From a virus: a stretch of 64,000 nt of DNA. The DNA is taken from IMG/VR virus record IMGVR_UViG_3300033978_000437; one strand, 5' to 3'. The notes below the pieces were generated by a model that made no database searches, was not told the DNA's origin, and saw only the letters and a program-made list of their open reading frames with translations. The translations under genes and the position numbers were made by a program. How positions within the stretch are numbered: position 1 is the first letter of the stretch; each line of letters begins with the position of its first letter. Below, in pieces: positions 6,617 through 53,190 of this stretch.

Positions 6617-7912
6617 TTAATCATTCACACCGAGGAACTGAGCTAACCCACTGGTCAGCTGACTTTTAGAAATGTTAGCTTCTTTTGCCAACTTAGCCAA
6701 GGTAGGCAAGGGTGGCTTAAGATCACTAATCATAGCATAGGCTTGTAAACCGGGCGATGAGCCAATGTACACACCCCTATGCACTACACTAGTACCACCC
6801 TTCAATGTACGATTCATTTGCGTGAACCCTGCATCGAAGTATTCCAAACCAAGGTTGTCTAAGTGGTTTTGATCTCCCACAAACAGACAAGCACCCTTAG
6901 TTCCTTGCTTCAGATCTACTTCAGCTAACACATTGTTAGTGAGCTGATCTCTAATCGCTGCAGAAATGTCTGCAGGACTTGTAATGTTTTGTAAGCTAGC
7001 TGCACCCATCACACAAATACCATGATCCAGCAACTGAGCTAGCTCACTGCGATCAAAGGTGATTAAAGGGCTATGTACCGCAGCCAATTGGTTAAACAAA
7101 TGGAATAGCTGACTGACTGTGCTATTAGCCACATTGTACAGCTGTGCCATGCCTGGGCGGTACAATTGGTTAATGCGGGCATTGTCAATCAAGATTAATG
7201 GGCTTACTTTGAGCTCCATTAGTCTTTGGAAAGATGTAACTGCATTACGACATACTTGCTGACCTTCCGTAAAAGCCGGAATTGAAGCTATCACTCCAAC
7301 TCGAGGTGGCTTGCCCTTAGACTCTAAGTACTCTCTAGCCACTTGCACCAGCTTACCACTAGTACCAGAGCCAGTACCACCACCTAAACCTACACAGATT
7401 AGGCCATAGTCCACATCGTTGCCCCACGAGCGTTGCAACAGATCCCAGATTTCCTCTTCGTGTCCATTTATTGCTTGTTCCGCAAACCTCGCATCTTTTG
7501 CAGCTCCACCCAATTGCAGCGTATGTCGCTGAATCTCATCGGGTAATCCTTGGAAGTCGCTCTCTGCGGTGTTGAATAAGGCCACTCGTCTATAGCCTAA
7601 AGACCAGAAGCTGGAGGCTAAGCGAGCACCGCCCTGCCCAGACCCCAGAAATGCCATGTTAAATGCGACATCATAAGGAAAGGCATCGTTTACCACTACT
7701 TGGGTTGCCGCTTGCTTATGGGCAGCAGGATTCAATGCTGCAGCGATGTTACCTATGTGCACAACGCCGGGGGCTGCAACTGGAGGTGCGATTGAAGGTG
7801 TGGCGACAGGGGCAACTGGGGCAGCAATGGGAGGGGTGGCAATGGGGATGCCCGATGCCTTGCTCAACGATGCCTTCATTTGCTGCTCAATCGAACCATC
7901 TGAATTACTCAT
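6617..7912 (-). CDS. Tubulin/FtsZ-superfamily GTPase with Pro/Ala-rich N-terminal extension
   Basis: GSGQGGARLA (T1), GLGGGTGSG (tubulin signature), LIDN, FDRSEL. Confidence 0.9.
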   Translation of the reverse strand: MSNSDGSIEQQMKASLSKASGIPIATPPIAAPVAPVATPSIAPPVAAPGVVHIGNIAAALNPAAHKQAATQVVVNDAFPYDVAFNMAFLGSGQGGARLASSFWSLGYRRVALFNTAESDFQGLPDEIQRHTLQLGGAAKDARFAEQAINGHEEEIWDLLQRSWGNDVDYGLICVGLGGGTGSGTSGKLVQVAREYLESKGKPPRVGVIASIPAFTEGQQVCRNAVTSFQRLMELKVSPLILIDNARINQLYRPGMAQLYNVANSTVSQLFHLFNQLAAVHSPLITFDRSELAQLLDHGICVMGAASLQNITSPADISAAIRDQLTNNVLAEVDLKQGTKGACLFVGDQNHLDNLGLEYFDAGFTQMNRTLKGGTSVVHRGVYIGSSPGLQAYAMISDLKPPLPTLAKLAKEANISKSQLTSGLAQFLGVND

Positions 7913-7936: not shown

Positions 7937-8527
7937 TTAAATAGAAGTTAGAAACTTATCTAAATTCTCAAACTGATTGTCTTTAACTTCAGAGTTTGTC
8001 ATTGTGAAAACTTTATTAAACAATTTCAAGTGCGTATTGTACCTCTTACGGTAACAATTGCAGATAGATTTTATGTAATCAGGATTAAACGAACCCTTGG
8101 TCCAACGTGTAATCATAGCTGCATCTTCAGCCTCTGTTGCTTGTACATCTATTACAATATTAGTTATATTAACCCACAAATCTAAAAATGGAGCCATTGT
8201 TGTGCCCGAGATAACTGCAGGACTATTGAATTTAGCAATAAACTCAGCTGGGCCAGGAAATGGAGTAGGGTAATAAAGAGGAATCTGATCACTTAAACAA
8301 CTAACTCCATGGTTTTCACAAATATCTTCATGAATCCTCTGTGACTCGTAATTTTGAAAATCATGTTCAAAATAAAAATTAACATGTGGCATTTCTATGT
8401 CTTGATTAGGCCACAACACTGCCCAGCCAAAATTGTATAATCTTCTAGCTACTTGGTTTACCCAAGCTCCGGGAGTACCCGCTACCAACACATGCTTGGT
8501 TACACAAACTCGTTGCAAATGAACCAT
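7937..8527 (-). CDS. Hypothetical protein, weakly sulfotransferase/P-loop-like
   Basis: VLVAGTPG..RRLYNFG..YFEH..RIHEDI resembles a degenerate sulfotransferase N-terminus; inference. Confidence 0.3.
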   Translation of the reverse strand: MVHLQRVCVTKHVLVAGTPGAWVNQVARRLYNFGWAVLWPNQDIEMPHVNFYFEHDFQNYESQRIHEDICENHGVSCLSDQIPLYYPTPFPGPAEFIAKFNSPAVISGTTMAPFLDLWVNITNIVIDVQATEAEDAAMITRWTKGSFNPDYIKSICNCYRKRYNTHLKLFNKVFTMTNSEVKDNQFENLDKFLTSI

Positions 8528-9564
8528 TCAAAAGCTTTCTGTTTCTTACGCACATACTCTGCTGTAACCAGCTGCATGGACTCTAGTAACTCTGTGGGAA
8601 CCTCAGCTAACTCCGACAAGGCAATTTCCACATCATCTAAAGACACTTCGGCAATAGGAGCTGGCTGTTCATCTAACCCACACACAATTAGCTTACCATT
8701 GGAGTCGTCCACCAAATGGGCTCCCACTGGAGGAATATCATGACAAGCCAAAACTGAGGAACTACTAACCAAGGCTGCCATGACCGACCCATAAGTATAT
8801 CTAGTGTTCGCCATGTAGACCCAATCATGCTGACGAGCTAGATTACTGTAGTCATAGTAAGGCGGGCTGGTTACACAAGCAACTCTATTAGGATAAGCCT
8901 GTTGAAGCTGCTTGATATCTGTACGATATCTGCGAGGCATGGAGTGTTCTAACAAAAAAGTAAATCTAGTCCCACTGTAATTGTCTAAAAGCGAATAAAA
9001 TATATCTAACAGTTCTGGTCCCATATCTAATTTTACTGACTTAGATAAAACAATTAAAAACTGTTGAAGGCCAGGCTGTACCCACCCACACTTTGGAGAT
9101 AACAATTTATCCGGAACTACCAAGTTAGCCCAAGTGCGATTAGGCAAAACCCTGCCTTGATGCTTGTCTAACCAATTAGATAAGTCATGGCTTAAACAAA
9201 TAATTCGATCTGCCATTTTTAGAAATGTTGAGTTATCTTCATTCCACATTCCCCAATAAGGGAAGTAATAATGTAAAGTCTGATACTTTGGGCTAAATGA
9301 ACTTACTAGCTTAGCTTCTTGTAATGCCCATATGCTAGGGCTAAACCAGCACAAATGTGTTGCTTGAAAAGCCCAATGATGTATCGAATCTTCGTTTGCT
9401 CGTTTAACCTTACAATCCCATATAGGGTGAATGCCCTTTGAAACCTTACCATCAGCTAGAAATTCTACTTCAATACCGCAACGCACTAACCAGTCTGCTA
9501 TTTGCACGGCTGCTAAAGTGGTTTCGTTGCGAACATAGGGAGCAAAAATTCCAACTTTGAGCAC
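8500..9564 (-). CDS. Putative GT-B-fold glycosyltransferase-like protein
   Basis: MLKVGIFAPY start, ADRIICLSH, HDWVY..YGSVMAAL..LACHDIPP; glyco-cluster context. Confidence 0.4.
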   Translation of the reverse strand: MLKVGIFAPYVRNETTLAAVQIADWLVRCGIEVEFLADGKVSKGIHPIWDCKVKRANEDSIHHWAFQATHLCWFSPSIWALQEAKLVSSFSPKYQTLHYYFPYWGMWNEDNSTFLKMADRIICLSHDLSNWLDKHQGRVLPNRTWANLVVPDKLLSPKCGWVQPGLQQFLIVLSKSVKLDMGPELLDIFYSLLDNYSGTRFTFLLEHSMPRRYRTDIKQLQQAYPNRVACVTSPPYYDYSNLARQHDWVYMANTRYTYGSVMAALVSSSSVLACHDIPPVGAHLVDDSNGKLIVCGLDEQPAPIAEVSLDDVEIALSELAEVPTELLESMQLVTAEYVRKKQKAFEWFICNEFV

Positions 9565-45298: not shown

Positions 45299-45613
45299 TT
45301 ATTTTTTGTTAAGACAGTGAGGTATTTGCATTTCATTTAATAGTTTGGTACAGCGTGCTATAGTAACTTCTCCCAGGTTTTGAATGCTTTCTAAATCTTC
45401 AACAGTTAATTTAGCTAAATCTCCTATAGTTAATAACCCATAGTTTTCTAGCGTGTTAGCTACACGGACGGGCAGCCCAACATCTGACAACGATATAGTC
45501 TGACATTGTTCAATTCTGTCTTTTTCTTTTTCGTCGTCAGACATGAACTGCACCCAGAGTTGATCTGGAGGTTTTCTTCGTTTACGTTTGACTGGTCCGC
45601 CATGTAGTTCCAT
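45299..45613 (-). CDS. Standalone RNA polymerase alpha C-terminal-domain homolog
   Basis: LSDVGLPVRVANTLENYGLLTIGDL..LESIQNLGEVT matches the alpha-CTD pattern. Confidence 0.8.
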   Translation of the reverse strand: MELHGGPVKRKRRKPPDQLWVQFMSDDEKEKDRIEQCQTISLSDVGLPVRVANTLENYGLLTIGDLAKLTVEDLESIQNLGEVTIARCTKLLNEMQIPHCLNKK

Positions 45614-48628: not shown

Positions 48629-48817
48629 TTAAAATTGTTGTGACCAATTTTCAGTTCCAGGTCTACCGATAGACCATAAATCTGAATACGCATTGTTTAC
48701 AAATCTGGATTTTGACATTGCATTGAGATTACTCAACGACCAAATCCTATTTCTATTCCAAGCTCTAGCAGGGAGCTTAGCATCCCACCCACTTACCATA
48801 TTTAGTCTTCTTATCAT
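48629..48817 (-). CDS. Ser/Trp-rich microprotein 17 (MIRRL...NWSQQF)
   Basis: ATGA overlap with the preceding unit, TGGAG RBS. Confidence 0.7.
   Translation of the reverse strand: MIRRLNMVSGWDAKLPARAWNRNRIWSLSNLNAMSKSRFVNNAYSDLWSIGRPGTENWSQQF
48701..48713. promoter_or_regulatory. Dyad motif AAAATCCRGATTTT copy
   Basis: AAATCTGGATTTT inside the last array unit, ~85 bp upstream of the next gene. Confidence 0.4.
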
Positions 48818-48999
48818 CTGCTACGCCTCCAAACTTGAGACTGTTGCAGCATTCTACTCCAACTAAAATTCCACATACATCTATTAACCCAACTCTGCTG
48901 CTTCATTGTTGATTTAAACCAGCTTTTACTGTTTGGGCTTGTAAGTCTTTGTCCGGTCCAGTTTTGAGAAAGTGCTTGTGTTTTAATTGTCATTCTCAT
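48814..48999 (-). CDS. Ser/Trp-rich microprotein 16 (MRMTIK...VWRRSR)
   Basis: ATGA overlap. Confidence 0.7.
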   Translation of the reverse strand: MRMTIKTQALSQNWTGQRLTSPNSKSWFKSTMKQQSWVNRCMWNFSWSRMLQQSQVWRRSR

Positions 49000-49196
49000 T
49001 TTAACCAATTAAGTCCTTTCCAATAAGTAGTCCAACAATTAGACCAACATTCTGATCTAGTTAGATGTCCTATAGCTACAAAACCTTTCCAACTTACGGA
49101 CCAAGCATGAGCATTTTGAGAAGAATAACTCCAAGTTATAGCTTTTTTAAAAGAGCTAGATTGATCCGTTGGAAATGTATTGACTCTTCTTATCAT
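48996..49196 (-). CDS. Ser/Trp-rich microprotein 15 (MIRRV...NWLK)
   Basis: ATGATAAGA start, ATGA overlap. Confidence 0.75.
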   Translation of the reverse strand: MIRRVNTFPTDQSSSFKKAITWSYSSQNAHAWSVSWKGFVAIGHLTRSECWSNCWTTYWKGLNWLK

Positions 49197-49345
49197 TGGT
49201 AGCTTGCCCCCCGAGAAATAGTCCAACTTTTAGATCCCGATCTAAAGTTAGTCCAGCCCCAAGACCAGCCATTCCTAGGGGTCTTAGAAAGACAACTAGA
49301 CTTAGTCCAATGTAAAGAGAAACCATTTATATTTTTTCTTATCAT
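49193..49345 (-). CDS. Ser/Trp-rich microprotein 14 (MIRKNINGF...GASYQ, 50 aa)
   Basis: Manually translated, below the ORF-track cutoff; AGGAGG RBS, TAATG overlap. Confidence 0.75.
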   Translation of the reverse strand: MIRKNINGFSLHWTKSSCLSKTPRNGWSWGWTNFRSGSKSWTISRGASYQ

Positions 49346-49560
49346 TACCTCCTCCTTCTAGGTGACGGCCAGAGTGCAACCCCATAGTCAGACCATAGGT
49401 GACGATGCGCCCAGACTTTAGAGAACGCAGGACCAGAACCCCAGCCTCCAAAGAATGGAACACCAGGCCCTTTGGCAAGTGTTCCACCCCATGAAGACCA
49501 GACATAACTATTATCCCAAGATCCGGTCCTAGCCTGTATTCTGGCTATTTTTCTTATCAT
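49345..49560 (-). CDS. Ser/Trp/Gly-rich microprotein 13 (MIRKIA...PRRRR)
   Basis: TGGAG-N9-ATG. Confidence 0.75.
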   Translation of the reverse strand: MIRKIARIQARTGSWDNSYVWSSWGGTLAKGPGVPFFGGWGSGPAFSKVWAHRHLWSDYGVALWPSPRRRR

Positions 49561-49769
49561 CGCTTAGTCCTCCAAAGCAAAGAGCGATGAGCGTGACAAC
49601 CATTTAAAAACCAATGAGACCAACTGTACTCAAGTTGGTGTGAGTCCGTGGCAATCTCAGACCACATCGATTCACGGCTCCAAGACTCAGAATTAGTCCT
49701 TTCGTTTTTAGGTCCGAGTTTATTTGTTACCCAAGACTTAGATCCGGGCCATGTTGCTTTCCATATCAT
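49557..49769 (-). CDS. Ser/Trp-rich microprotein 12 (MIWKA...LWRTKR)
   Basis: TGGAG-N9-ATG. Confidence 0.75.
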   Translation of the reverse strand: MIWKATWPGSKSWVTNKLGPKNERTNSESWSRESMWSEIATDSHQLEYSWSHWFLNGCHAHRSLLWRTKR

Positions 49770-49945
49770 CTTCGGGTTCTCCAGCTATTTGAACGAAACC
49801 AAAGATATTCAGAAAAGATGCGGCACAAACCCCAACAGCCAGCAAAACTGTTTAAAGATGTTGACCAATGACTCAAATTAGTCCTAGACCTTTGTAATGC
49901 TTCAGTCCAGTTATTAGAGTTAGCAGTTATTCTATGCATTTTCAT
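49766..49945 (-). CDS. Ser/Trp-rich microprotein 11 (MKMHRIT...SWRTRR)
   Basis: TGGAG-N9-ATG. Confidence 0.75.
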   Translation of the reverse strand: MKMHRITANSNNWTEALQRSRTNLSHWSTSLNSFAGCWGLCRIFSEYLWFRSNSWRTRR

Positions 49946-50127
49946 TGAGCTGTTCTCCAAGAGTAGGAACGGTTGTACCATATGCCACTACCTACATCGC
50001 TGTGGGTGCGCTGGCGAAACCAGTTACCTGATTTTAAATCGTAATGATCCCATTGGTTGAACCATGAACATTTCTGTTCTCTGTTCCAAACAACAGATAT
50101 GATTACTACATTTGCTTTTCTTATCAT
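49942..50127 (-). CDS. Ser/Trp-rich microprotein 10 (MIRKAN...SWRTAQ)
   Basis: ATGA overlap. Confidence 0.75.
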   Translation of the reverse strand: MIRKANVVIISVVWNREQKCSWFNQWDHYDLKSGNWFRQRTHSDVGSGIWYNRSYSWRTAQ

Positions 50128-50300
50128 CGAGAGCCCCTTCTCCAATCTCTAGACTTTTCCCAAGTATTAGTCCAAGACCCAGAATCATAATTAGACTTAA
50201 ACCAAGACCAAGACTCACGCCATTCTTCTGCCCAATCCCAAGATCTAGCACAACCCCGAGAAAAAGTCGTAGCAGTAGTACATTTTGTTTTTCTTATCAT
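50124..50300 (-). CDS. Ser/Trp-rich microprotein 9 (MIRKTK...DWRRGSR)
   Basis: TGGAG-N9-ATG. Confidence 0.75.
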   Translation of the reverse strand: MIRKTKCTTATTFSRGCARSWDWAEEWRESWSWFKSNYDSGSWTNTWEKSRDWRRGSR

Positions 50301-50464
50301 TTGTCGGTGCTCCAAGAATAAGACCAAGGCTCAGGCCAAGACCCAGATCCAGCCCAACGCATAGACTCTGACCAAGATTCAGACCAAGGCCCAGACCAAG
50401 ACCAAGACCTAGTCCAAGACACAGACCAAGACCAAGAACTAGCCTCATTTGTTTTTCTTATCAT
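50297..50464 (-). CDS. Ser/Trp-rich microprotein 8 (MIRKTNEASSWSWSVSW...SWSTDK)
   Basis: 11 Trp in 55 aa; TCTTGG hexamer repeats. Confidence 0.78.
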   Translation of the reverse strand: MIRKTNEASSWSWSVSWTRSWSWSGPWSESWSESMRWAGSGSWPEPWSYSWSTDK

Positions 50465-50643
50465 ATATCTCCTTTCCAAGAGGAAGACTCTATAAAGTCC
50501 TCAGTCCATGCTCCACCAATACGCCATTCTTCTGACCAAAGATTAGACCATGTAGGCCAAGGTCTATACTTAGCCAAACACCAAGACATGTTCGTGTCCA
50601 AAGACCAAGAGAAAGATTGGCCAAAAGCTTTTCTTATTATCAT
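50461..50643 (-). CDS. Ser/Trp-rich microprotein 7 (MIIRKA...SWKGDI)
   Basis: TGGAG-N9-ATG. Confidence 0.75.
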   Translation of the reverse strand: MIIRKAFGQSFSWSLDTNMSWCLAKYRPWPTWSNLWSEEWRIGGAWTEDFIESSSWKGDI

Positions 50644-50816
50644 CGGAAAGAACTCCAAGAATTAGATCTAATCTTTGGAAAGACCCACAGGTAAGACCAA
50701 GATTTTCCAAAAGGCGTAGCGGTAGATCTGTGCCAATGTCGTGTAAAGCAAGTTCCCCAAAAAGACAAGTCTGACCAATCTCTTGATCTGGGAATTACTA
50801 ATGTTTTTCTTATCAT
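50640..50816 (-). CDS. Ser/Trp-rich microprotein 6 (MIRKTLVIPRSRDW...SWSSFR, 58 aa)
   Basis: Manually translated, below the ORF-track cutoff. Confidence 0.75.
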   Translation of the reverse strand: MIRKTLVIPRSRDWSDLSFWGTCFTRHWHRSTATPFGKSWSYLWVFPKIRSNSWSSFR

Positions 50817-50817
50817 G

Positions 50818-51000
50818 TTATCTCCATGCTATTCGCAGAATAGATAGGTTCCAGTTTCGTGCTCCCCATGTAATGCTGTAATGCCAGCGTCCGGGCCAGC
50901 CTAGAGATCCGGAACCGGACAACAAAGACGCAGACCAGTACACAGACCCAGACCAGTTACGAGATAGTTTTTCAGGAGCTCTCGCTGTTCGTTTGATCAT
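50818..51000 (-). CDS. Ser/Trp-rich microprotein 5 (MIKRT...IAWR)
   Basis: TGGAG-N9-ATG. Confidence 0.75.
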   Translation of the reverse strand: MIKRTARAPEKLSRNWSGSVYWSASLLSGSGSLGWPGRWHYSITWGARNWNLSILRIAWR

Positions 51001-51197
51001 ATGTGGTGACTCCAAGATCTAGGAATGGAACCGACTACGAAGTTAGACCGAAGTCTGTTTTGAGGCCAGCACCCAGTGTAATTTTGACTAAAATGCCAGT
51101 TCCAACTCCAAGTCTTGGGAAAAGGTTTAAGACGAGACCAAGAATAACCTTGAGACCAAGCTTCAGTTCGAGAGTATAGCAATGTTTTTCTTATCAT
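50997..51197 (-). CDS. Ser/Trp-rich microprotein 4 (MIRKTL...SWSHHI)
   Basis: TGGAG-N9-ATG. Confidence 0.75.
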   Translation of the reverse strand: MIRKTLLYSRTEAWSQGYSWSRLKPFPKTWSWNWHFSQNYTGCWPQNRLRSNFVVGSIPRSWSHHI

Positions 51198-51403
51198 GCG
51201 TTTGTACTCCACGACTCGGACATAGGTATGTTTATATCCATCGCCACCCAAGCCCAACAATGAGACTCAAAATCAGTCCAAGACTCTGAATGTGCCTCAA
51301 AATTTGAATTTATACTATATCCCCAATTATCTAACCAAGATGATGATATATGTGCACTAACGTTCCAAGAGTTTGAACTCCTCCACGTTATTTTTCTTAT
51401 CAT
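51194..51403 (-). CDS. Ser/Trp-rich microprotein 3 (MIRKIT...SWSTNA)
   Basis: TGGAG-N9-ATG. Confidence 0.75.
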   Translation of the reverse strand: MIRKITWRSSNSWNVSAHISSSWLDNWGYSINSNFEAHSESWTDFESHCWAWVAMDINIPMSESWSTNA

Positions 51404-51609
51404 AAGTTATCCCTCCAATGCCAAGACTCGTGTCTATTTTTAACCCAAGCACCAGATCTACCCTGAGACTCGGGCCAAGAATAAGATTTAGCATACTGAT
51501 GAGACCAAGCCCCACCCCAGCCACCTTGAGCTACAGTTGGCTTCCACTCAGATGTATCCCAATTCCCAGACCAAGACCCAGAACTTGCAAAATCAACACT
51601 TCTTATCAT
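51400..51609 (-). CDS. Ser/Trp-rich microprotein 2 (MIRSV...HWRDNL)
   Basis: TGGAG-N9-ATG. Confidence 0.75.
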   Translation of the reverse strand: MIRSVDFASSGSWSGNWDTSEWKPTVAQGGWGGAWSHQYAKSYSWPESQGRSGAWVKNRHESWHWRDNL

Positions 51610-51788
51610 CGGTATTCCCTCCATGCTGTGGTGGAAATAAATTTAGTGTGAGACCAACTACTTGACCAAGGTCTACCTAATCTATCAGAGGAAAAAACCA
51701 TACCTTCTGTTCTGTAAGTGCCGCAAGTCCAACTATTGGTCCAGAGCAAAGCTCTGGACCATGGAGGAATAGATTTTATTATTCTCAT
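51606..51788 (-). CDS. Ser/Trp-rich microprotein 1 (MRIIK...AWREYR)
   Basis: AGGGGAG RBS, 14 bp downstream of the Sm-like gene. Confidence 0.75.
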   Translation of the reverse strand: MRIIKSIPPWSRALLWTNSWTCGTYRTEGMVFSSDRLGRPWSSSWSHTKFISTTAWREYR

Positions 51789-51802: not shown

Positions 51803-52120
51803 TTATGCATCCAAGGGAGCGAAGCACCAGCGTGGCTGATATATGATTTCCACTGCACCTAGGGAAATCACAACAGAGGAGCCGATTGGATCCTCGGTGT
51901 TAGGTTGTTCTTGACTAGAAGCACCCGAGGTCTCCACTGCCCTAGCTTGGGCCAACACCAAGCAGTCATCAGCTACATGGCTGAGGATGCCACGGTAGTT
52001 GTAGCGGGCACAAAGCACCGCAACGGGTTGACCCAAGAATTGCTGAGCAATACTGGCCATGTTGCCAGCAAGGGTGCCATCGATATTTACCAAAGTTACT
52101 TTGTTCTTTACTTTTGCCAT
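51803..52120 (-). CDS. Sm/LSm/Hfq-fold protein
   Basis: Sm1-like FLGQPVAVLCARYNYRGILSHVADDCLVLAQA and Sm2-like GSSVVISLGAVEII. Confidence 0.7.
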   Translation of the reverse strand: MAKVKNKVTLVNIDGTLAGNMASIAQQFLGQPVAVLCARYNYRGILSHVADDCLVLAQARAVETSGASSQEQPNTEDPIGSSVVISLGAVEIIYQPRWCFAPLDA

Positions 52121-52155: not shown

Positions 52156-52183
52156 AAAAAGGGAGCAGACATTCTGCTCCCTT
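52156..52183 (-). terminator. Intrinsic terminator
   Basis: AAGGGAGCAGA/TCTGCTCCCTT stem with T-tract on the minus strand. Confidence 0.75.
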
Positions 52184-52217: not shown

Positions 52218-52544
52218 CTAGTCTGCAACTTTGCGTTCACGCTCTGCGTTGAGCGGATCATACTCTCTTTGTCTAGTGACACAGACCCAGCTGTTAGCTG
52301 GCAAGCGGATGTCCGAATGCTCGTCGTGTCCGACTACTGTTTCTTCTTTAGAAAAGAGATAGATATCTCCTTTCACATTTACATAACTTTCGACCTCGGG
52401 CCCAGTCCTGATGGCATGACTGTGACCAGTCACTTCTCCGAATGCAAGAATCCTAGATTCGTGCTTTTTCATATCTTTAAGATCCTTTGGCTTAGCCACG
52501 GTCTTAAAGAAAATATCACCCTGACGACTTTGAAAATTCCGCAT
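52218..52544 (-). CDS. RQGD/GExTGHxH protein, partner of DUF6745-like
   Basis: RQGDI, LAFGEVTGHSH, HDEH..I.LP, RQREY. Confidence 0.75.
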   Translation of the reverse strand: MRNFQSRQGDIFFKTVAKPKDLKDMKKHESRILAFGEVTGHSHAIRTGPEVESYVNVKGDIYLFSKEETVVGHDEHSDIRLPANSWVCVTRQREYDPLNAERERKVAD

Positions 52545-52563: not shown

Positions 52564-53190
52564 TTAAGATTCCTGTGAAGGCTGGTACTTGTCAGCCTTC
52601 ATGTAATTCGTCCATGCTACTGCTTCCAAACATGTCTTCATGGTTGGCGGTACGCATAAGAAGTAGTTCTTAAATGTACCATCGGGTTCTGCAGTCGAGT
52701 TTACTACCTTGACATACAAGGTAGGCTCGGTGAAAACCCTTGGGATTTCAAACAGAATCCTTTCTCTTCCAAACTGATCCACATCCTTGTGGATAATTTT
52801 AGTAGTAGGTAGGGCCATGATTTTGTCTAACCCTATGACCTTCATCCCTACATATCTTACCTCCGTATTTGGGTTTCGCAAGACTTCTTCCAACAAAACC
52901 GTTTCTGGCTTGGTAAAGAAGTGCGGAGGAATGCGAACTCCTTCGTAATAATACAGGATGCTGCCGAACTTGTCGGCATCCATTCCATGTTGTTGACCAT
53001 TCTTGTACCAGATGATTCTGGTAGGGGAGATGTAGGCTGGACCATTGTCACAATGGAGCCTACCATCCTCGTTCAAGATTCGTTTAAGTGGCCCAAACCC
53101 AAACTCTCCATTAAAGAATTTGAGTCTGGAAGTCCACGCTTCATATCCTTGGTTTTTCATTCCAACTCCTTTTAGGTATGAATGCTCCAC
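52564..53190 (-). CDS. DUF6745-like protein
   Basis: LHCDNGPA, WYKNG, VKVVNSTAEPDGTFKNYFLCVPP..AVAWT. Confidence 0.7.
   Translation of the reverse strand: MEHSYLKGVGMKNQGYEAWTSRLKFFNGEFGFGPLKRILNEDGRLHCDNGPAYISPTRIIWYKNGQQHGMDADKFGSILYYYEGVRIPPHFFTKPETVLLEEVLRNPNTEVRYVGMKVIGLDKIMALPTTKIIHKDVDQFGRERILFEIPRVFTEPTLYVKVVNSTAEPDGTFKNYFLCVPPTMKTCLEAVAWTNYMKADKYQPSQES

Follow-up and report, generated by a model that had tools for sequence, protein, structure and literature searches.

Within the 64,000-nucleotide stretch of IMG/VR virus record IMGVR_UViG_3300033978_000437 analysed here (the window), 17 small genes rich in serine and tryptophan lie back to back on the minus strand from position 51788 to position 48629, directly behind an acidic gene (51803..52120, minus strand) that we refer to as the head gene. 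We propose that this array is a translationally coupled operon of selected microproteins with tryptophan in a two-residue register, which were born from a hexamer repeat and act together with the Sm-like protein predicted to be encoded by the head gene, probably on RNA. As a composite, this reading has in our judgement about an even chance of being correct, and within it we have much more confidence in the coding and module parts than in the functional one. The link of the array to the upstream head gene, which was missing from an earlier reading made from the letters of the window (the sequence-only reading), is the most informative context of the array.

Architecture of the array and its junctions

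The array consists of 17 ATG-started open reading frames (ORFs) of 50–71 amino acids (aa), and the description given by the sequence-only reading was accurate in this respect, as were its junction counts: 14 junctions are ATGA overlaps, units 13 and 14 share a TAATG overlap and units 5 and 6 are separated by a gap of 1 nucleotide (nt). ORFs of at least 50 aa fill 99.97% of the array stretch; in 300 shuffles that preserve dinucleotides, their coverage averaged 14.7% and never exceeded 41%. The openness of the array is far above that of the shuffled sequences and is therefore more than chance.

A cassette of the form TGGAG(G)-N7-9-ATGATAAGAAAA, exemplified at 51400..51425 (minus strand), is found at nearly every junction and comprises a Trp codon with the Shine–Dalgarno (SD) site, the stop (TGA and then TAA) and the next start. 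The SD site TGGAG(G) lies 8–14 nt ahead of the next ATG, and GGAG occupies positions −13 to −10 before the ATG in 67–75% of 96 junctions. Because the cassette is conserved, with the Trp codon of the previous unit placed within the SD site and the stop overlapping the next ATG, and because of its spacing, the units are probably connected by termination–reinitiation coupling, which would give roughly equal translation of all of them. The array would thereby offer a clean natural case of long-range coupling, with 16 junctions on one cassette.

The same cassette alters the meaning of two features that had been read as peptide motifs. Trp does stand exactly five residues from the C-terminus in 12 of the 17 units (58 of 97 across loci), as had been counted, but it is not a peptide motif, since its TGG belongs to the SD site TGGAG(G) of the next unit. 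Eleven units share the start ATGATAAGAA, again in agreement with the earlier count, and MIRK or MIRR opens 63 of the 97 units across loci. The MIRK-type start is recurrent, but much of it is a translation signal. Its codons are nearly fixed across loci (ATA for 72 of 78 Ile, AGA for 65 of 67 Arg and AAA for 51 of 55 Lys); the start is thus conserved at synonymous sites as well and is therefore at least partly a nucleotide-level junction signal made of the double stop TGA-TAA and an A-rich start.

One long gene read by programmed frameshifting was considered and ruled out, given that each junction has two in-frame stops and its own SD site and ATG, with no conserved slippery-site candidate before the stop. 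When the junction cassette pattern was searched in IMG/VR, multiple matches, among the matches listed, occurred solely in contigs already known, and single matches were chance-like.

Purifying selection in the Ser/Trp frame

Related loci were gathered through the head gene, which retrieved seven viral contigs, and through unit 13, which led to further lake contigs; the array was read in nine loci (L010–L016, L026 and L029). All nine contain an open array of 8–18 units with ATGA overlaps behind the same head gene, and a partial array at the contig end of a further locus, L024, is likewise open. The pooled ratio of nonsynonymous to synonymous divergence (dN/dS) of the alignable orthologous units was 0.44 in the Ser/Trp frame, compared with 1.09 and 0.85 in the shifted frames, and that of the flanking genes was 0.01–0.14. 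Units 5, 6, 7, 10 and 13 are among those with the lowest dN/dS (about 0.04–0.3). Stop codons were kept in 22 of 22 cases in orthologous units.

Constraint is concentrated on tryptophan. Trp was retained at 149 of 155 orthologous positions (96%), compared with 81% for all residues, and in the unit 7 family six Trp residues are invariant across two clades at 37–40% identity. Divergence at the three TGG bases was 1.3, 3.8 and 1.3%, while it was 16.8% at the base before and 11.3% at the base after, as at third positions elsewhere. As the constraint does not reach beyond the TGG codon, selection acts on the Trp codon itself rather than on any longer DNA motif, and a motif such as CTTGG as the selected unit is ruled out. 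These comparisons indicate that the Ser/Trp frame is the coding frame and that it is under purifying selection that is weak overall and very strong on Trp. The proposal that the array holds selected but fast-diversifying small genes in the translated frame was in this way substantiated by dN/dS, Trp retention and the TGG-limited constraint.

The +1 frame of the array (for example at 50245-50448 and 50024-50251) encodes Gly-Leu repeats, and its ATG-started ORFs reach 75 aa, or 77 aa in L015. As a real gene, this frame was ruled out by its 67 stops within the units (97 in the +2 frame) and its dN/dS of 1.09, and it is a by-product of the hexamer described below. The automatic gene tables of L026–L029 skip several units, and the resulting gaps of about 175–210 nt hold open units. 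Since gene callers miss such units, modules of this kind are probably under-counted in public data.

Composition and two-residue register of the peptides

The units have a mean length of 63 aa and a mean net charge of about +5. Trp makes up 11.3% of their residues (6.5 times the content of the long ORFs of the window) and Ser 16.6% (2.8 times), and Arg is enriched. Neither the window nor a relative of 172 kb has Trp-rich ORFs outside the array. Trp–Trp spacings of 2, 4, 6, 8 and 10 are enriched and odd spacings are depleted 3–5 fold, with only 3 adjacent WW pairs observed against 76 expected. Arg, Lys, Gly, Glu, Gln and Met share the Trp register, and the other register consists of 40% Ser, followed by Ala, Pro and Thr. 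The presence of charged residues and Gly in the Trp register means that the pattern is a drifted (Ser-X)n pattern, in which X is Trp, Arg or Gly, and not the hydrophobic face of an amphipathic strand.

Tryptophan zippers are designed β-hairpins with W-x-W on alternate positions, and the units resemble them in having Trp at every second residue, small polar flanks and turn-prone Gly, Pro or Asn separators. They differ in that the designs are 12–16 residues long, and the model of a unit family here has a predicted local distance difference test score (pLDDT) of 49. No unit matched Pfam, PHROGs or PADLOC, and a profile of the unit 7 family found nothing significant among PDB sequences. A profile of 62 units, which is weak and of low complexity, had no match among 5.8 billion proteins, and the best score of unit 7 in a feature search of the ESM Atlas was 0.79, which is the chance level. 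No hydrophobic run or signal peptide was apparent in the units by eye (no predictor was run).

The composition could also suit membrane-active peptides in the manner of indolicidin or tritrpticin, serving lysis timing, superinfection exclusion or the killing of competitors. Trp combined with Arg and Lys and a net positive charge is what such peptides contain, and Trp prefers membrane interfaces. We regard this explanation as very improbable, given the lack of an apparent hydrophobic segment or signal peptide on the same visual inspection, the location of the array away from lysis and structural genes, and a length of 50–71 aa with 17% Ser, unlike the known Trp-rich antimicrobial peptides of 13–20 aa.

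Precursors of ribosomally synthesised and post-translationally modified peptides (RiPPs), which the sequence-only reading had offered as one possible function, would be modified by phage or host enzymes, for example by Trp crosslinks or Ser dehydration. That the ORFs are numerous, small and hypervariable, have a start in common and are rich in the common modification sites Trp and Ser agrees with this idea, and a neighbouring gene with RQGD, GH.H and HDEH motifs (52218-52544) could bind metal. However, the alignment of 62 units conserves only M1, I2 and the Trp columns, so that there is no shared leader beyond the four-residue start, which is itself conserved at the nucleotide level. Five related records, which are 28–88% complete, yielded neither a radical SAM nor a YcaO gene (host enzymes are possible), no peptidase or exporter gene adjoins the array, and the visual inspection mentioned above, made with no predictor, revealed no signal peptide or hydrophobic run. 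Moreover, what accompanies the peptides constantly from lineage to lineage is the Sm-like protein and not an enzyme. Prochlorosin-type ProcA precursors carry a conserved leader and require a LanM enzyme. The ProcA/ProcM lanthipeptide libraries are similar to the array in having many small hypervariable peptide genes per genome, but they depend on a long conserved leader and LanM, in contrast to the absence here of a leader and of any radical SAM or YcaO gene found, and the ProcA genes are scattered and not translationally chained, whereas the units of the array are chained. The RiPP proposal is therefore not supported, and we consider it highly unlikely.

Hexamer ancestry and turnover of the units

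Synonymous Ser codon use had been put forward as an argument for protein-level selection. This argument fails, as TCT accounts for 57% of the Ser codons of the units and for 28% in the background. Together with the density of TCTTGG within the array, 25 times that of the remainder of the window, the TCT bias points to descent from a hexamer repeat. Unit 8, which has no orthologue, has a hexamer score of 0.44, whereas the other 16 units score 0.24 or less, and the least hexamer-like units 5, 6, 10, 13 and 17 (0.03–0.10) are the best conserved. The TCTTGG run within unit 8 extends over 50321..50437 (minus strand) with a period of 6 and about 19 copies. In lake metagenomes, its portion at 50370-50437 draws hundreds of other short contigs, the depths of which add up to thousands; hexamer repeats of this kind are therefore common in other organisms living in these waters.

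Turnover between phages is extensive. The 98 units of seven loci form 47 BLASTP clusters, 26 of which are singletons. Close relatives have 17–18 units and keep the backbone order, with replacement of particular slots between conserved units. A strain diverged by 2% differs by 85 substitutions of all ordinary types over 3.9 kb and by no indel. The hypervariability noted earlier thus applies between related phages but not within the strain. No match to a reverse transcriptase (RVT_1) was found in five related records, and a diversity-generating retroelement is not supported on this basis and on that of the ordinary character of the strain-level changes. Stability at the strain level and the absence of a reverse transcriptase from these records therefore indicate ordinary birth, drift and loss and not targeted hypermutation. 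The array of L014 contains gaps of 95–201 nt (6893-6989, 8173-8371 and 8520-8722), and one of its units, complete in L012, is reduced there to a remnant of 41 aa, so that units decay as well as arise. Between the arrays of L024 (JBDNHI010000076.1) and L015, we observed an in-frame difference in repeat length, a unit being 86 aa in L024 and 80 aa in L015.

We suggest that units would arise by expansion of TCTTGG-type hexamers and by duplication or replacement of whole units, with the shared junction, at a guess, as the site of exchange between them. They would then drift away from the repeat, so that units 5, 6, 7, 10 and 13 are now complex and well conserved and units 8 and 14 may be young or lineage-specific. 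Independently of function, graded stages between an unaltered hexamer repeat (unit 8) and complex conserved microproteins (units 10 and 13) stand side by side in one locus, so that the emergence of proteins from simple repeats can be tested directly.

Such an origin raises the question of whether the peptides have a function at all. The array might be a tolerated selfish repeat of hexamers or units, or translation itself might be the function, with a coupled leader rich in Trp codons sensing or draining Trp-tRNA and setting downstream expression. The microsatellite-like origin, the TCT bias and the pure hexamer run are in line with this, as are the series of about 119 Trp codons under tight coupling, the synonymous sites that evolve more slowly than in the flanks, the nucleotide-level conservation of the junction and the four units with dN/dS about 1. 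On the other hand, it is the positions of Trp and not merely their number that are kept down to 37–40% identity in the unit 7 family, the even register persists in diverged units, and several units of complex, non-repeat sequence have dN/dS values of 0.04–0.25. Different genes follow the array in different clades, which leaves no constant regulated target. Functionless peptides or a role of translation alone thus appear distinctly unlikely.

The turnover itself could instead reflect a host-interaction library that does not depend on the Sm-like protein, in which each peptide inhibits or decoys a different host factor (a defence system, protease or RNase) and is replaced in an arms race, as in the multigene families of large viruses. 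The numerous clusters and singletons, the replacement of slots in close relatives while the array stays at 17–18 units, the units with dN/dS about 1 and the position of the block in the early or replication region, by other small unassigned genes, are all compatible with this possibility. Nothing, however, ties the units to defence, as none matched PADLOC, PHROGs or Pfam, and the head gene is invariably present in the clade and is found again beside simpler peptides in other contigs. The strong constraint on one residue type in one register, seen in all units, suggests that the units share a physical property and do not each address a specific target. We therefore rate a host-interaction library as rather unlikely.

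The head gene and its predicted Sm/LSm-like fold

The head gene encodes an acidic protein of 105 aa (net charge −2) and ends 14 nt before unit 1. Its product is 68–99% identical across all related loci, with dN/dS of 0.01–0.04. The AlphaFold2 model consists of a helix (H21-26) followed by five strands and has a mean pLDDT of 62.7. All of the top Foldseek matches listed for this model are Sm/LSm chains, with a best E of 5.5e-3 and template modelling scores by target of 0.55–0.71. A comparison of the protein with curated Sm, LSm and Hfq models yielded from Pfam only DUF6897 (E 2.8e-4, below its cut-off), and the Pfam LSM model was not matched; PHROGs and PDB sequences gave no match either. On the strength of the model, we assign a Sm/LSm-like fold to the head protein with moderate confidence. 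The head family comprises 177 representatives at 50% identity, and some of its members are tandem fusions of two Sm-like domains of 184–274 aa (P0003-P0007, P0010, P0012 and L044:249-857).

A terminator-like hairpin with an 11-bp stem and a T tail (52159..52183, minus strand) closes the upstream genes, and the head gene and the array begin after it. The terminator, the acidic Sm/LSm-like head gene and the 17 small genes thus make up one transcription-unit-like block.

A wider phage module of head genes and (Ser-X)n peptides

Association of head genes with repeat peptides was also found by a route independent of the head gene. At least 119 viral contigs carry the exact 18-mer (TCTTGG)3, and 22 of these loci contain 51 ORFs for (Ser-X)n peptides, where X is Trp, Arg or Gly. 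Directly upstream of the peptide genes, a homologue of the head protein with 85–90 aa is encoded in seven of the 22 loci (hhalign 92%, E 6e-7, 66 columns), and in five others the gene at this place has 110 aa and is a homologue of the 85–90 aa gene (96%, E 2.5e-9). With head homologues upstream in 12 of 22 loci, the pairing of head gene and peptides is real and spans distant lineages. The head proteins are acidic in 18 of 18 cases (−1 to −6), and the peptides are basic, with charges of +5 here and +10 in the other loci.

In some of these loci, ATGA-coupled units are chained into arrays, with 13 units in L161, 8 in L187 and 5 in L245, and each array has its own constant basic start. The locus L161:5543-8955 (IMGVR_UViG_3300042987_003260) holds 13 tandem (Ser-X)n genes of near-pure repeat, mostly ATGA-coupled and all starting with MITKR or VITKR, behind a head homologue of 87 aa, and is a second, independent large array. 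At L187:1548-3182, eight Ser-Trp/Arg/Gly peptide genes with the start MRYLFEGS follow a head gene of the 110-aa type. At L245:1960-4841, there are five Ser-Trp/Arg/Gly peptide genes with the start MIKKSIYKRNIW, and a 333-aa gene stands upstream in place of the head gene.

The array in the window shares with these pairs an acidic head gene of the same superfamily directly upstream (hhalign 92–96%), basic peptides with a basic N-terminus in which Ser alternates with Trp, Arg or Gly and which derive from NNN-TCN type hexamers, and tandem ATGA-coupled units, up to 13 of them in L161. Its head gene lies on the same strand, and its peptides fall within the length range of about 40–110 aa. The alternation of Ser is kept as even Trp spacing and as a register with 40% Ser, whereas the 6-nt repeat is near-pure solely in unit 8. 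It differs from the other pairs in that most units are no longer dipeptide repeats, with only unit 8 being a near-pure one, in that Trp and not Arg or Gly dominates X, in its lower peptide charge (+5 versus +10) and in its length, since 17–18 units make it the longest array examined and several of them are conserved as complex sequences. Among the loci examined, the present array is the largest and most diversified form of the pairing. The module of head gene and peptides is apparently widespread in uncultured phages.

Proposed function

In the composite reading, the basic, aromatic, Ser-spaced peptides would serve as interchangeable low-complexity partners, acting in trans, of a Sm-like and probably RNA-binding assembly, with Trp and Arg as contact residues to nucleic acid, most likely RNA, or to the acidic head protein. 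Because the block sits among replication genes, its expression may fall in early or middle infection. RNA-binding peptides had been listed among several functions by the sequence-only reading and are the best fit of those options, given the Sm-like head gene. If the peptides do act with the Sm-like protein, they would represent an undescribed kind of phage RNA-handling module, with interchangeable low-complexity partners encoded as separate genes.

Several observations weigh against this proposal. Gene order, charge complementarity and analogy are the only grounds on which the peptides may be thought to bind the Sm-like protein or RNA. Six distant head homologues with readable DNA (L039-L043 and L045) have no such peptide gene downstream, and a seventh, L044, has a single doubtful Trp/Ser-rich ORF further downstream, so that the link between head gene and peptides is not universal; about 10 of the 22 (Ser-X)n loci in turn have no recognisable head gene directly upstream. 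As for selection, units 2, 4, 9 and 15 have dN/dS about 1. Synonymous divergence (pS) of the alignable units was 0.20, about half that of flanking genes of the same genomes (0.33–0.56), and dN/dS is therefore mixed with nucleotide-level constraint or a bias toward alignable pairs; possible causes of the low pS are nucleotide-level constraint, gene conversion or the selection of alignable pairs. Conservation of MIRK is, as noted, at least partly of the nucleotide-level kind. In structural terms, the AlphaFold2 model of the unit 7 family has a pLDDT of 49 and contains a weak hairpin at residues 9-25, with strands at 9-15 and 21-25 at a pLDDT of about 60, and both 'disordered' and 'β-hairpin' are guesses for the units.

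The closest published systems are analogies. Eukaryotic Sm/LSm proteins with Arg-Gly tails and the RS domains of SR proteins are similar in combining a Sm-fold core with a basic, dipeptide-periodic low-complexity sequence and in alternating Ser with a basic residue; SmB, SmD1, SmD3 and LSm4 are examples with Arg-Gly tails. In eukaryotes, such a tail is joined to the Sm core itself or belongs to another protein that has RRM domains, whereas here it would correspond to 17 separate genes. The eukaryotic tails are also not known to contain Trp, in contrast to the Trp-rich units, and no sequence homology to Pfam LSM was detected here. Extending this comparison, the array could be a nursery in which simple (Ser-Trp/Arg)n partners of a putative Sm-like RNA-binding ring have been turned into 17 distinct selected microproteins that tune a phage ribonucleoprotein assembly, possibly a condensate, as an independently evolved, split counterpart of the eukaryotic Sm core and its low-complexity tail. 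We regard this extended version as doubtful.

Among phages, GoF, MotB.1 and Frd.2 of T4-type phages are small early-region proteins of predicted LSm-like fold and unknown function, and there is some indication that they influence RNA stability (PMC12152347). The head protein would resemble them as a small phage early-region protein of predicted LSm-like fold; compared by description, they differ in belonging to enterobacterial phages, and the title, abstract and outline of that report mention no partner peptide genes (PMC12152347). A full-text literature search for Ser-Trp/Arg peptide genes paired with Sm-like phage genes found no description. The array is thus far from any described system, and the statement of the sequence-only reading that it did not recognise one agrees with the databases and literature searched, which hold no description of the units.

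Individual units

Unit 1 (51606..51788; all units on the minus strand) encodes 60 aa, starts with MRII and has orthologues in L010, L011, L013 and L029. It is followed by unit 2 (51400..51609, 69 aa), the family of which occurs in both phage clades with dN/dS about 1.1, by unit 3 (51194..51403, 69 aa), which is 90% identical in aa sequence to its counterpart in L011, and by unit 4 (50997..51197, 66 aa), with dN/dS about 1. Unit 5 (50818..51000, 60 aa) starts with MIKR and has dN/dS of 0.26-0.64, and unit 6 (50640..50816, 58 aa) has values of 0.20-0.24. The family of unit 7 (50461..50643, 60 aa) is present in 6 loci, and it is this family that retains the six invariant Trp between clades at 37–40% identity; its dN/dS is 0.20-0.25. 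Unit 8 (50297..50464, 55 aa) contains 11 Trp in a core of nearly pure (Ser-Trp)n and has no clear orthologue.

Unit 9 (50124..50300) encodes 58 aa. Unit 10 (49942..50127, 61 aa) is among the two best-conserved units, with 84-97% aa identity and dN/dS of 0.04-0.35. Units 11 (49766..49945, 59 aa) and 12 (49557..49769, 70 aa) start with MKMH and MIWK, respectively. Unit 13 (49345..49560, 71 aa) is 92-99% identical in relatives, with dN/dS of 0.11-0.16, and is represented in the 5.8-billion-protein collection by a single 90% cluster from 26 contigs. Unit 14 (49193..49345, 50 aa) is a singleton, and unit 15 (48996..49196) encodes 66 aa. Unit 16 (48814..48999, 61 aa) has an identical copy in L029 and is absent from L010 and L011. 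The end of the last unit, unit 17 (48629..48817, 62 aa), overlaps the start of the long reading of a 128-aa downstream ORF.

Genomic context and distribution

The window contains genes for a DNA polymerase, a DnaB-like helicase, an SbcC-like protein, a C5 methyltransferase and the large terminase (TerL), and looks like part of a large phage genome. The array block is placed among the replication genes, near other small genes without assigned function and not near lysis or structural genes. The array with 18 kb of flank had no DNA match among the INPHARED phages, and the nearest cultured TerL is 30% identical. The exact array is present in about 20 lake-water metagenome runs. L024, which is near-identical to L015 and L016, is binned in a metagenome-assembled genome of Gemmataceae (Planctomycetota), which is the only hint of a host and a weak one.

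Upstream of the head gene, the sole match of the RQGD, GH.H and HDEH-motif gene (52218-52544, minus strand) is a PHROG of unknown function. It is preceded by a DUF6745 gene (52564-53190, minus strand), and DUF6745 also adjoins the head homologues in L041 and L044; these genes may belong to a more extensive conserved neighbourhood. In relatives, a stand-alone protein of 103 aa that is encoded a few kb downstream of the array (L026:9127-9438, corresponding to about 45299-45613 of the window) matches the Pfam RNA polymerase alpha C-terminal domain.

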